The notes under the pieces: model-generated
Told to the model about the DNA's origin: nothing
Seen by the model: only the letters and a program-made list of their open reading frames with translations
Database searches by the model: none
Shown: in pieces, positions 20,168 through 23,143 of the stretch
Layout: each line of letters begins with the position of its first letter
Position numbering within the stretch: position 1 is the first letter of the stretch
Made by a program: the position numbers and the translations under genes
From: Saccharofermentanales bacterium
GTDB taxonomy: Bacteria > Bacillota > Clostridia > Saccharofermentanales > DTU023
Assembly: GCA_041655695.1 (NCBI GenBank)
Contig: JBBAEW010000001.1
Coordinates: 30,999 to 94,998 of the forward strand
Direction of reading: 5' to 3'
DNA length: 64,000 nucleotides

Positions 20168-20503
20168 TTATTCCTGCGGGCTGTACTGGGCCGCGAAGAG
20201 GACGTCATCGACCGTGATCAGGCTGTCTGTTGCCAGGTAGATCTGGCCATCCAGTGAAGAAAGCCAACCCGCAAAAAGCAGATCCGGAAGCTCCGGGTCC
20301 GGCGGAAAATCAATTGCCTGGCCGGGCAGGAGGCGTGTTTCCAGGACCGTCGTTTCCCCGTCTTTAAAAGTGACCGTCCGCCTGAAGTCAATGGAACCCG
20401 AGAAGGTGACGACGGTGTGGTCGGTCATGTAGGCTCCGCTGGTGGTCAGCGCCAGGGCCAGGAGGATCAGGAGCAGGACAGGAAGGATGAGTTTTTTCTT
20501 CAC
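20168..20503 (-). CDS. small secreted protein with SipW-type signal peptide and one Listeria-Bacteroides (Flg_new-like) repeat
   Basis: N-terminus MKKKLILPVLLLILLALALTTSGAYMTDHT. The C-terminal TVTF..G....LPGQAIDFPP....FAGW pattern fits the repeat. Last gene of the sipW operon. Confidence 0.55.
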   Translation of the reverse strand: MKKKLILPVLLLILLALALTTSGAYMTDHTVVTFSGSIDFRRTVTFKDGETTVLETRLLPGQAIDFPPDPELPDLLFAGWLSSLDGQIYLATDSLITVDDVLFAAQYSPQE

Positions 20504-20522
20504 AAGATGCCTCCTCTCACCA

Positions 20523-21182
20523 TCAGGGAATCCTGGCCGGGACGATATCCAGGGTCAGGTCGGCAGCATAATTGGGGCCGGAAAGCGCTTCCCAGCTGCC
20601 ATCCCCGGAAGAGACTGCCTTGTTATTCAGGTATTGGCGGCCTTCAAAGATGACATGGACCCGGAAGTCCAGACCCTGAAAGCCCAGGGATGTGTCCGGA
20701 TCCAGGAGCAGGACGTACTGGCCTTTGATCTCATTTTTTCCGCCGCTGACGCTTTCAAGACTTCCATTCAAGATACCGGGATAAAGAGTGATCTGACCTG
20801 GCCCTGACAGGAGAGGCTGGGCATGATCCAGGAGTGTTTCATAAGACGCTTCCTGGCCTTCAAGAAAGTCCTGGGAACTGTAAACCAGGAAGCCGCCCTG
20901 AGCGCTGTCGCCCGCCGGGTCGTGTTCCAGGCGGATCCGGATCCGCGTATCCATGGCCAGGGACCCGCCGCTTTTGGCCTGGAAGGACAAAAGCCGGCCA
21001 TCTCCGGGCCTCATGCCCTCCAGGGATTCCATTGCGGCTCCGGTCCCTGAGAAATAAAGACTTCCTGCCTGGACATCCCCGGTCTTTTCATAACGATCCG
21101 AAAAAGAGGCGTAACTGACTGTCGCGGCAAGCAGAAGCAGGGCGGCCAGTAAAAAGATGGATTGTTTGGCCCGTTTTCCCAT
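20523..21182 (-). CDS. TasA/camelysin-family secreted protein (SipW-dependent signal peptide)
   Basis: ORF 20523..21239 trimmed to MGKRAKQSIFLLAALLLLAATVSYASFSD. The signal plus YASFSD motif is typical of SipW substrates. C-terminal FRVHVIFEGRQYLN is shared with 21293..22399. Confidence 0.7.
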   Translation of the reverse strand: MGKRAKQSIFLLAALLLLAATVSYASFSDRYEKTGDVQAGSLYFSGTGAAMESLEGMRPGDGRLLSFQAKSGGSLAMDTRIRIRLEHDPAGDSAQGGFLVYSSQDFLEGQEASYETLLDHAQPLLSGPGQITLYPGILNGSLESVSGGKNEIKGQYVLLLDPDTSLGFQGLDFRVHVIFEGRQYLNNKAVSSGDGSWEALSGPNYAADLTLDIVPARIP

Positions 21183-21292
21183 GGCAAGAGCAGACTCCCT
21201 GTCAAGATAAAAGAGGGATGGTACAGATCCTTGCACCACCCCGCTTCTACGGATTCAAATTGATTATACCCCCGGGAGGGCCTGCCTGCTTC

Positions 21293-22399
21293 TTACCAGC
21301 CGCCAGGTCCCAGAGGATCGTGGGCATTGCGGTACTGGCGTCCCTCGAAGGTGACGTGCAGGTCAAAGGTTGCCCCCTGCCAGCTGTTGTCCGAGTTATC
21401 CAGCATGACAACCTTGAAGGCGCTGGAAAGCCCCGTCCAGACGTCCGCAGCGAAAGTAACCGAGTGGGCCTTCAGGTAGCTGAAGGTGTTATTGGGATAG
21501 GCAATCCACTCATCGGCAGGATCGAAGGGGCGGTCAGGGTTCTGATCTCCCTTCCAGACGGTGGCTTTTCGCACCAGCGTATGATCCGTTGTCGTGACGC
21601 CGCCGCTTCCCCAGTGGGTGCCCGGGTCCTCGCCTACGCGTCCGATCCGGTCAGCCACGATGCCATTTCGCTCAAGGACAATGGCGTCGTCGCCGTTATG
21701 CTGCAAGTTGCCGGCCGTCATGTTGGCCACGGCCAGGATGGCCGCGTCAGCACCGGGGTTTGCGATGACAAAGGTCTGGCGCGAGCCCAGGGTTCCGGTG
21801 AGGGGGATGGTATAAAGAGCTGAGGTGTCGCCATTCATATAGAGCTTGATGGAGTACTCGGAAAGATCAACAGCGACCTCGGAGGTGTTGAAGAGTTCCA
21901 GAGCCTTATTGTTGCCGGATCCTTCAATGTACTCGGAGAAGATCACATTTTCAGGCCGGGTGCCGATCTTCTCAATGCTTCCGTCCAGGATGCCCAGGGT
22001 ATGGTAGCCGATCCCTTCGTTGGTCAGGACAGGTGTAGCTCCTGCGCGGAGGCTGTAACCTGTCGCCTCACTGTAGCTGAGGACATCATCAGCCAGGTAG
22101 ACGGCGAAGCCGCCCGGTCCGGTGATGGGAGAGCCGGTATTCTCAAGTTCGATTTTTGCCCGGACTTCCATGGCCAGGGTGCCGCCATTGGAAAGACCCG
22201 CTGTTACATCGCGGGCATCGCCCGGGGCGTAATTCTCCAGTGCCTGAAAGAGGGTGTCCGGTTCGTTGAAGAAAAGCGTGCCCGCCTCAACTCCCCTTTG
22301 ATAAGATTTGTAGTCGTTGAAATAGGCAAAGCTCACTGTCAATGCCAGGACCAGGATGGCGGCCAACAATAGGATGAGCCGACGCTTCTTTTTGTTCAT
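21293..22399 (-). CDS. TasA/camelysin-family secreted protein with inserted lamin-tail domain (LTD)
   Basis: N-terminus MNKKKRRLILLLAAILVLALTVSFAYFND. The central VIFSEYIEGSGNNKALELFNTSEVAVDLSEYSIKLYMNG region (about aa 150-305, nt 21485..21952) matches the LTD pattern of ExeM/NucH-type proteins. The C-terminus FDLHVTFEGRQYRN matches the neighbouring paralogue. Confidence 0.7.
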   Translation of the reverse strand: MNKKKRRLILLLAAILVLALTVSFAYFNDYKSYQRGVEAGTLFFNEPDTLFQALENYAPGDARDVTAGLSNGGTLAMEVRAKIELENTGSPITGPGGFAVYLADDVLSYSEATGYSLRAGATPVLTNEGIGYHTLGILDGSIEKIGTRPENVIFSEYIEGSGNNKALELFNTSEVAVDLSEYSIKLYMNGDTSALYTIPLTGTLGSRQTFVIANPGADAAILAVANMTAGNLQHNGDDAIVLERNGIVADRIGRVGEDPGTHWGSGGVTTTDHTLVRKATVWKGDQNPDRPFDPADEWIAYPNNTFSYLKAHSVTFAADVWTGLSSAFKVVMLDNSDNSWQGATFDLHVTFEGRQYRNAHDPLGPGGW

Positions 22400-22465
22400 A
22401 CTTAAGGAACCTCCAAGTGTTCTTTGCGGGGTTTTCAGGCAAACCGGCCAGAGGGCCGCCTCCTG

Positions 22466-23143
22466 TCAATCATCAAGGCTCATGGTAAAAGGTTTTTTTG
22501 AAAAAGGCAATATAAGGCGAAAAGAGGGTTCATAAAGCCAATTGTGTAACATTTTCAACAAAATATAAGCAAGAATGATAGCTAATACCAGCGCAAGTGC
22601 CAGGAATGGTCTGGCCTGGATCAAGCGGGCCACAGAGGCTACCCAATTCCAGACACTGACAATTTCGTAATCCACATAGCGGAAAGGCAGGCGCGAATCA
22701 GGGAAACTATAAGCGAATTTGTGGGAATCGTCTGCCGGGCTGTTGTCACCCTTGGTCATGAGGGTCTGCCCCAGCGGGTCCACATGTGTGATACGGTGAG
22801 TGATCAGGACTTCACGGATCAGCGGCAGGCCATCTTCATCCACTTCATCAATGACGCGAAAACTGATGATATCCCCTTCTTTCAGGGTGTCAGGCTGGAC
22901 CGGCCTGCCAAGGACAATGGCGTGTTTCTGAATGGCAGGCGCCATGCTCTCGGAGACGATCAAAATGGGCTTGTAGTTAAAGATGGTCCCCTTGCCGGAG
23001 GTCACCATGGAGAAGCCGAAGCTGATCAGGGCCAGGCACAAAAAAGCGATGATGCCGTAAAGGACGATCCATGCCAGGATCTGCTGGGTAACTGTGTAGA
23101 TCTGCCTTACTCTTCTCATGCCTTGGTCCTGTCGCTCTTTCAT
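22466..23143 (-). CDS. sipW: signal peptidase I, SipW (archaeal/ER) type
   Basis: ORF with catalytic SESMAPAI motif, THRITHV and KGDNSPADD, and TM anchors at both ends. Start is ambiguous (23143 or 23119). Confidence 0.85.
   Translation of the reverse strand: MKERQDQGMRRVRQIYTVTQQILAWIVLYGIIAFLCLALISFGFSMVTSGKGTIFNYKPILIVSESMAPAIQKHAIVLGRPVQPDTLKEGDIISFRVIDEVDEDGLPLIREVLITHRITHVDPLGQTLMTKGDNSPADDSHKFAYSFPDSRLPFRYVDYEIVSVWNWVASVARLIQARPFLALALVLAIILAYILLKMLHNWLYEPSFRLILPFSKKPFTMSLDD

Follow-up and report, generated by a model that had tools for sequence, protein, structure and literature searches.

The 64,000-nt window examined here (a stretch of contig JBBAEW010000001.1 from a Saccharofermentanales bacterium) contains an operon that probably encodes a SipW-dependent fibre module of the TasA type. 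It consists of four co-directional genes on the minus strand (positions 20168–23143), i.e., in operon order, a sipW-like signal peptidase gene, genes for a 368-aa and a 219-aa protein related to TasA and camelysin, and a gene for a secreted protein of only 111 aa. New to this operon are a lamin tail domain (LTD) that is nested within the TasA-like core of the 368-aa protein, and the very small third protein, which is a donor-only candidate in fibre assembly. The gene structure, family relationships, insertion topology and conservation of interface residues were read directly from the analysis, as were the purifying selection on the 111-aa gene and the rarity of the system.

The peptidase gene (22466–23143, minus strand) can be read as 225 aa from the ATG at 23143 or as 217 aa from the ATG at 23119, and the latter is the likelier start since relatives align from that Met and the NCBI protein counts 217 aa. 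It is followed on the same strand by the gene of the LTD-bearing subunit (21293–22399; 368 aa, ribosome-binding site (RBS) GGAGG), that of the plain subunit (20523–21182; 219 aa from the ATG at 21182, RBS GGGAG) and the small-protein gene (20168–20503; 111 aa from a GTG start, RBS GAGGAGG), with intergenic spacers of 66, 110 and 19 nt, respectively. The four NCBI entries (MFA5584979, MFA5584978, MFA5584977 and MFA5584976, in operon order) are named ‘signal peptidase I’, ‘lamin tail domain-containing protein’, ‘SipW-dependent-type signal peptide-containing protein’ and ‘hypothetical protein’. The N-termini of the three secreted proteins, each of which is present exactly as it was quoted in the original prediction, have the pattern S-x-A|[YS]-[FM]-x-D in common.

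Judged by family models and motifs, the peptidase belongs to the SipW class, i.e., the endoplasmic reticulum (ER)/archaeal type that had been predicted for it, without being an orthologue of Bacillus SipW. This assignment was made because its score exceeded, marginally, the cut-off of TIGR02228 (the NCBIfam model of archaeal/ER-type signal peptidase I, MEROPS S26B; 53.5 vs. 51.85 bits), fell far under that of the Bacillus SipW equivalog NF046067 (40.2 vs. 190 bits), and was accompanied by retention of the SEC11-type motifs. The model of the bacterial type, TIGR02227, yielded 17.9 bits against a cut-off of 47. Moreover, the top solved relatives were the human SEC11C/A catalytic subunits (phmmer; E 9e-5 for SEC11C, 7p2q), and the catalytic motifs SES66MAP, TH116R and KGD133N (225-aa numbering) align with SGSMEP, VHR and KGDN of SEC11C. 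The S66, H116 and D133 motifs are invariant in two relatives of the peptidase (41–43% identity), and correspond to the Ser-His(-Asp) arrangement rather than to the bacterial Ser-Lys dyad. Hydrophobic segments that could anchor the enzyme are located towards either end (residues 14–40 and 170–192).

The 368- and 219-aa proteins are, by profile and alignment, members of the TasA/camelysin superfamily with SipW-type signals. The former is predicted to consist of a signal (residues 1–25, ...TVSFA|YFND), a donor-strand-like segment (26–44) and a jellyroll core (approximately 45–149 and 323–368), and ends in ...GGW. The latter would likewise comprise a signal (residues 1–25, ...TVSYA|SFSD), a donor-like segment and a jellyroll core, to which a C-terminal tail (W...LDIVPARIP) is added. 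This tail (W...VVP...P) is conserved in the subfamily and absent from the 368-aa protein; in TasA, the C-terminal tail provides an extra inter-subunit contact (PMC9674648). Both proteins scored above the cut-off of 19 bits of TIGR04088, the curated model of the SipW-dependent signal (20.3 bits for the 368-aa and 23.2 bits for the 219-aa protein), and the 368-aa protein also exceeded the gathering threshold of Peptidase_M73 (PF12389; 31.1 vs. 22.5 bits), albeit over model positions 11–79 of 196 only. The TasA equivalog NF046066 gave approximately 13 bits with the paralogues, against a cut-off of 450. When compared with each other by BLASTP, residues 1–158 of the 368-aa protein aligned with residues 1–157 of the 219-aa protein (37% identity, E 2e-22), and a second block paired residues 329–358 of the former with residues 155–186 of the latter. 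A profile of the subfamily matched the TasA fibre (8aur, E 1.2e-6) and the TasA monomer (5of1, E 2.4e-5), and weakly AbpX (E 0.03), while hhalign of the subfamily vs. TasA returned a probability of 96.7% over 79 columns (the residue numbering of the TasA sequence used here and in the alignment below agrees with that of the published papers).

In an alignment of 13 sequences including TasA, only seven columns were invariant, i.e., those of TasA residues A27, F29, D31, P62, G63, Q232 and W233. Among these, F29 of protomer n, Q232 of protomer n+1 and P62 of protomer n+2 form, together with F200, the ‘proline box’ at the protomer interface, which was reported to be the most conserved feature of TasA and camelysin (Roske et al. 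2023, PMC10151520). Since the conservation between TasA and the subfamily thus includes fibre-interface residues, it constitutes the best available argument for polymerisation by donor-strand complementation, as it was described for the TasA fibre (Bohning et al. 2022, PMC9674648). The A27 column also predicts the cleavage sites of the two paralogues, i.e., TVSFA|YFND and TVSYA|SFSD, both of which have Ser in position –3 and Ala in position –1.

The LTD occupies residues 150–322 of the 368-aa protein (21434–21952, minus strand), and is of the type found at the N-terminus of ExeM. It was recognised by PF00932 (56.9 bits, threshold 34.3; residues 149–254) and by the ExeM model NF033680, of which only the N-terminal LTD region was matched (E 5.5e-26; residues 151–318 vs. 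model positions 25–180 of 884). In an AlphaFold2 (AF2) model of the whole protein (mean predicted local distance difference test (pLDDT) score of 79.9), residues 150–315 or thereabouts exceeded a pLDDT of 90, and Foldseek matched this part to the Ig-folds of lamin A/C and B1 with a probability of 1.0 (TM 0.5–0.63). The insert is preceded by the block ‘...LDGSIEK’ and followed by the strand ‘KVVMLDNSDNSWQG...EGRQY’, so that it comes before the last two strands of the core, and the TasA counterparts that flank it are ‘...IDGKTAPEY’ and ‘MEIQF200KDD...QNKYQG...EATQ232W’, an alignment that is only approximate around the insertion site, which is a variable region. The LTD is a true insertion inside the TasA-like core. 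The earlier claim of an LTD inserted in a camelysin-like protein was thereby upheld on three grounds, i.e., the split alignment of the paralogues, the lamin-like Ig-fold of the model, and the recurrence of the arrangement in a second clade at 44% identity. TasA residues 174–177 form the fibre–fibre interface that was probed with a 174-177AAAA mutant (PMC9674648), and as the insert lies roughly at this contact loop, the LTD should protrude sideways from a fibre. A further member of the subfamily (P0127, 307 aa) has an insertion of approximately 60 residues that is no LTD at roughly the same position, suggesting a hotspot for insertions in this part of the TasA-like core.

With billions of proteins searched, LTD-inserted subunits were encountered in two small Saccharofermentanales-type clades, i.e., in one cluster close to the 368-aa protein (96% identity) and in the distant P0125 (374 aa, 44% identity). 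The other matches of the 368-aa protein concerned the LTD alone, and LTD-only matches swamped this query. An exhaustive phmmer search with the 219-aa protein among 1.84 billion representatives gave only 10 hits, and a word-indexed homologue search with the subfamily profile only 10 matches. Synteny of the operon was found in at least 23 metagenome contigs. Loci of the P0125 type occurred in the metagenome-assembled genomes of two GTDB species (‘uncultured Mageeibacillus sp.’ and ‘Clostridiaceae bacterium AS10tlH2TH_388’), with a few more in metagenome contigs. A scan of GTDB genomes with a four-sequence alignment returned three loci and a scan of metagenomes four, all from this sister clade, and the species of the window itself was not recovered among the GTDB representatives in the genome scan. 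A tblastn search of a plasmid collection gave no relatives.

All sister-clade loci consist of sipW (238 aa), the LTD-bearing subunit (374 aa) and the plain subunit (205–218 aa), in that order, and none contains a small third substrate gene. Homologues of the 111-aa protein made up only two clusters in a word-indexed search, and its gene was restricted to one of the two clades. Both clades thus have the three-gene core in common, to which only one of them adds the 111-aa gene, and the absence of this gene from the sister clade indicates that the core works without the 111-aa protein. Moreover, the flanking genes differ between the clades, which points to a self-contained module. No link between TasA and LTDs appeared in the literature searched, and we found no second case in which an entire foreign Ig-type domain is housed within a TasA jellyroll, here at its lateral face.

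The 111-aa open reading frame (ORF) is a real gene, as shown by its strong RBS, a syntenic orthologue of the same length and a dN/dS of 0.29. This orthologue (in locus L011) is 77% identical and resides at the equivalent position, and the dN/dS value vs. this sequence indicates purifying selection. The protein is predicted to start with a signal (residues 1–24, ...TTSGA|YMTD), leaving a mature chain of 87 residues that begins with the TasA-like segment YMTDHTVVTFSGSIDF (residues 25–40; window 20384–20431, minus strand). A custom HMM (hidden Markov model) of 44 columns, built from the N-terminus of the subfamily and run on all 466 ORFs of the window, ranked the three operon genes first, second and third (67.7, 64.3 and 17.4 bits), the 111-aa protein being third with an E-value of 7e-5. 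The next ORF after this trio (60545–61750, 7.1 bits, with the string ‘LASFTDY’) is EF-Tu and was dismissed as a chance match. The mature N-terminus A|YMTDHTVVTFSGSIDF parallels A|AFNDIKSKDATFASGTLDL of TasA along both donor strand and linker (A|YMTD...TFSGSIDF vs. A|AFND...TFASGTLDL). The original prediction had described this protein as a signal and a repeat only, and so missed the 16 TasA-like residues at its mature N-terminus. Its claim of three TasA/camelysin-type substrates applies to the 368- and 219-aa proteins; the 111-aa protein shares with them only the signal and the first 16 or so mature residues.

The remainder of the 111-aa protein is a non-TasA segment of approximately 65 residues, in which a Flg_new-like (i.e., Listeria-Bacteroides-type) repeat was delineated at residues 43–105 or thereabouts (window 20189–20377, minus strand), with a sub-threshold score. 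The Flg_new model (PF09479, cut-off 27 bits) was covered nearly in full (positions 2–64 of 65) and BLASTP to a bona fide Flg_new repeat gave an E-value of 3e-5, in line with the repeat proposed earlier. The full protein scored only 18.2 bits and its residues 42–111, taken alone, only 19.7 bits, and the orthologue (P0122) gave no match to the model. The designation of this part as Flg_new-like is thus tentative.

In B. subtilis, TapA donates an N-terminal strand, exposed by SipW, and has an Ig fold that is complete in itself (PMC10151520, PMC9674648), so that TapA can only start a filament, and 14 N-terminal residues of it (44–57) suffice in vivo (PMC10151520). The 111-aa protein has a comparable layout, with a donor-like N-terminus and no acceptor jellyroll, from which it follows that it could donate only. 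The operon proteins had no TapA-named family among their NCBIfam and Pfam matches, a direct comparison with the TapA sequence not being part of this search. The absence of TapA and SinR that had been noted before stands in terms of homology, whereas in terms of function the layout of the 111-aa protein (a SipW-type signal, a donor-like N-terminus and a small unrelated domain) may be that of a TapA. By this analogy the 111-aa protein is tentatively regarded as a non-homologous TapA analogue and fibre initiator, with chances somewhat short of even.

The following mechanism is proposed. After Sec-dependent export of the three pre-proteins, the membrane-anchored ER-type peptidase would cut each of them after S-x-A, exposing YFND..., SFSD... 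and YMTD..., respectively. The N-terminal strand of each TasA-like subunit would then enter the beta-sandwich of the next one (i.e., donor-strand complementation), and the contact would be made through the ‘proline-box’ residues F, P and Q that B. subtilis TasA also uses. In the 368-aa subunit, the complete lamin-tail Ig domain would face outwards along the side of the fibre and promote adhesion or bundling, the 219-aa subunit would serve as the undecorated paralogue that keeps its C-terminal tail, and the 111-aa protein would prime the first subunit in the manner of TapA, thereby placing its Flg_new-like domain at the fibre origin. SipW processing, polymerisation, the initiator role and the function of the LTD are what we infer here from homology. 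Taken as a whole, this mechanism, by which the operon would yield a SipW-dependent extracellular fibre of the TasA superfamily (resembling a biofilm matrix fibre or pilus), seems rather more probable than improbable.

Several observations weigh against this mechanism or against single steps of it. The 219-aa protein scored only 17.6 bits with PF12389, under the threshold of 22.5, the core of the 368-aa protein was modelled with only moderate confidence, and TasA was not among the PDB matches that Foldseek gave for the complete 368-aa model. The motif shared by the three N-termini could reflect recognition by the peptidase only. The function of prokaryotic LTDs is unresolved in the literature (PMC6085458, PMC4486849, PMC5118699), and the LTD in question is acidic (net charge about –11, pI 4.55), which speaks against simple electrostatic binding of DNA; a simple electrostatic model in which a basic LTD binds extracellular DNA (eDNA) was ruled out by this charge. 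As for the initiator, TIGR04088 gave no match to the 111-aa protein at E <= 1, Met occupies the position of the key Phe of the TasA/TapA donor, the donor-like segment lacks approximately three residues relative to the two TasA-like paralogues, the AF2 model (from three sequences) was unusable with a pLDDT of 53.6, and the sister clade has no counterpart of the gene.

A number of these points would equally fit an operon that encodes the same fibre module, with the 111-aa protein as a further cargo processed by SipW or another signal peptidase, e.g., a small matrix or adhesin protein like BsaC, rather than as an initiator. Such a role would account for the failure to match the signal model, for the replacement of Phe by Met in a shortened donor segment, and for the sister clade, in which both TasA-like paralogues are kept without the 111-aa gene; BsaC moreover provides the precedent of a non-TasA third protein in a sipW operon. 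However, the similarity of the 111-aa protein to TasA runs beyond the cleavage site over the whole donor and linker (...TF-SGSIDF vs. TasA ...TFASGTLDL), 14 N-terminal residues are enough for TapA to act in B. subtilis in vivo, and the 111-aa gene follows the 219-aa gene at a distance of only 19 nt. A mere cargo role is therefore considered rather unlikely, and the initiator is retained as the preferred, tentative reading.

Very unlikely, in turn, is that the two TasA-like proteins are secreted without polymerising, as soluble or cell-surface proteins (e.g., an LTD adhesin, or a protein associated with the spore or envelope). The TasA homologue BsaB indeed forms monomers and dimers only, neither an anchoring signal nor a regulator is present in the operon, and the AF2 core (all-beta, pLDDT 60–85) found no TasA fold match. 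That search, for which both domains were submitted together, yielded meaningful matches to LTDs and lamins only, and provides no evidence either way on the fold of the core. Against such a non-polymerising role, the residues that are invariant between TasA and the subfamily include the inter-protomer F29, P62 and Q232, the donor region (residues 29–42) is disordered in the monomer model of the 368-aa protein, as it is in monomeric TasA (PMC10151520), and two paralogues with a dedicated peptidase have been kept across two clades. The idea of non-structural proteins, i.e., camelysin-type (MEROPS M73) metalloproteases or components of LTD-bearing extracellular nucleases, has the family name Peptidase_M73 and the ExeM match in its favour and is nonetheless extremely improbable, since sequence inspection of the operon proteins revealed no HExxH or other metalloprotease motif, the literature considers that M73 proteins were probably misidentified as proteases (PMC11580942), and the ExeM match is limited to the N-terminal LTD region of the model and comes without a nuclease domain. 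An LPxTG motif is likewise absent from the operon proteins. Ribosomally synthesised and post-translationally modified peptides were ruled out as well, the proteins concerned being folded ones of 190–340 aa.

A further-reaching combination of ideas, which we consider unlikely on present grounds, would be that the 111-aa protein is a convergent minimal TapA (donor-only initiators being general and repeatedly reinvented) and that the LTD turns each protomer into a ligand-binding, cross-linking scaffold that attaches to eDNA via cations, to polysaccharide or to a cell-wall polymer, thereby replacing the bundling loop of TasA.

Comparison with known systems qualifies the distinctness that the original prediction had attributed to this extracellular module: the nested LTD and the tiny third protein set it apart, whereas the general plan of a sipW gene, two TasA paralogues and a lineage-specific accessory protein processed by SipW is known from C. 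perfringens and B. cereus. In the sipW-bsaA-bsaB-bsaC operon of C. perfringens, BsaA, locked by isopeptide bonds of the N-E-K type, forms the polymer, BsaB gets no further than monomers and dimers, and BsaC is a 70-kDa VWA protein. The plan is identical, i.e., sipW, two remote TasA homologues and a third secreted protein with an unrelated domain, and the host is in both cases an anaerobic member of the Clostridia. In contrast, the third protein is a 70-kDa VWA protein there and a 111-aa Flg_new-like protein here, the BsaA family model TIGR04090 scores 14.9 against a cut-off of 60 with the present operon, and the Bsa proteins are devoid of an LTD. No sortase gene is adjacent to the present operon.

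With the tapA-sipW-tasA operon of B. subtilis, the present one shares a dedicated ER-type SipW, substrate cleavage (here predicted) before [A/Y/S]-F-x-D, the invariant interface residues F29, P62 and Q232 and, as far as can be judged from sequence, an accessory protein in which a donor-like N-terminus precedes a small domain of an unrelated type that would be self-contained. It differs in that sipW comes first, that two TasA paralogues are present instead of one, and that one of these carries an inserted LTD. The accessory protein is only 87 aa when mature, Flg_new-like and non-homologous to the V-set Ig domain of TapA, and has Met where the donor strand of TapA has Phe. Neither SinR nor any other regulator is found near the operon, and the scores with the Bacillus equivalog models are far under their cut-offs (40 vs. 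190 for SipW, 13 vs. 450 for TasA). The sipW-tasA/capP (bc1280)/calY system of B. cereus similarly combines two TasA paralogues, for which co-polymerisation into heteropili has been proposed, with a lineage-restricted nucleation factor processed by SipW. CapP is, however, a larger chaperone with an oligomerising N-domain that bears no sequence relation to the 111-aa protein, and the B. cereus system lacks an LTD. The archaeal and bacterial filaments of the TasA superfamily (AbpX, AbpA, Tafi, threads) resemble the present system in their jellyroll with an N-terminal donor strand, their adjacent signal peptidase I and their tip or anchor genes, but are far more distant in sequence, and none of them has been described with an inserted LTD. 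Finally, the insert, which is modelled as a lamin Ig-domain, was matched to the N-terminal LTD region of Shewanella ExeM with an E-value of 5.5e-26. There, the LTD is a terminal module of a hydrolase and is dispensable (PMC6085458), whereas here it is nested in a predicted structural protein.

With regard to expression of the operon, a scan for terminator-like structures identified a hairpin of 11 bp (6 G-C) followed by UCUUUUAUCU (21215–21242, minus strand) in the 110-nt spacer between the genes for the 368- and 219-aa proteins. This spacer folds with –45.7 kcal/mol (z = –3.06), and the equivalent spacer of a sister-clade locus (L012, 8190–8260) contains a weak hairpin (z = –0.65). The hairpin might act in partial termination or in transcript processing and thereby set subunit stoichiometry, with the LTD-bearing subunit as the most abundant one. 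A 238-aa version of the 219-aa gene, starting from the GTG at 21239 in the mechanical ORF list, was discarded because its extension crosses this hairpin and because homologues and the NCBI entry back the 219-aa form. The promoter scan detected no canonical sigma-70 site upstream of sipW, and an Rfam search of the whole window gave neither a riboswitch nor another RNA family.

Downstream of the operon, a convergent plus-strand gene (19373–20155; 252–260 aa, without Pfam family) ends 12 nt from the stop of the 111-aa gene, and also adjoins the 111-aa orthologue in L011. Beyond it lie three tandem paralogues of TauE/SafE-family membrane proteins (16919–19419, minus strand; 247 aa each), an arrangement that is kept in all contigs with the operon. 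Divergent from sipW are a gene for a DUF4428 zinc-ribbon protein (23259–24056, plus strand) and an AmmeMemoRadiSam-type trio (24114–26284, plus strand; LigB/Memo-like, AMMECR1 and radical SAM proteins), which are absent from the sister-clade locus and have no evident link with the fibre operon. A 643-aa polytopic membrane protein and a 376-aa protein, both without Pfam family (26281–29350, minus strand), adjoin an ABC ATPase (29368–30312), with which they may form an ABC-2-type exporter set. A block at 48756–56329 (minus strand) has a GC content of 0.44–0.47 vs. approximately 0.58 elsewhere and encodes an Nramp transporter, two tandem FAA-hydrolase paralogues and a three-subunit molybdoenzyme of the xanthine dehydrogenase family (FAD, molybdenum cofactor (MoCo) and 2Fe-2S), and looks like a horizontally acquired metabolic island.

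TasA-like genes were also met in two other contexts. In locus L019 (5172–12708), a distant one (P0134) is situated between a ParA/resolvase region of the plasmid type and a Tad/Flp-type pilus cluster (prepilin peptidase A24, RcpC-like protein, T2SSE ATPase), an arrangement that recalls the dependence of BsaA/BsaC export on type IV pilus proteins in C. perfringens. Locus L020 (283–4344) is a multi-paralogue TasA locus with three Peptidase_M73/TasA-like genes (308, 226 and 241 aa) and two interleaved genes of approximately 230–250 aa without family.

Among protein scaffolds of Gram-positive biofilms, TasA-type fibres are the model case, and the existence of relatives in archaea shows the principle to be ancient. 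The system described here is overall a variation on this known theme, in an uncultured host, and bears on how fibres are nucleated in the many lineages without TapA as well as on how they are functionalised. In the former respect, the 111-aa protein, with its 87 mature residues, is a natural candidate for a minimal initiator. In the latter respect, if the LTD-bearing subunit polymerises, the position of its insert would tolerate a large cargo, which would be useful for the engineering of decorated TasA materials, and the subunit would offer a handle on the function of prokaryotic lamin tail domains.

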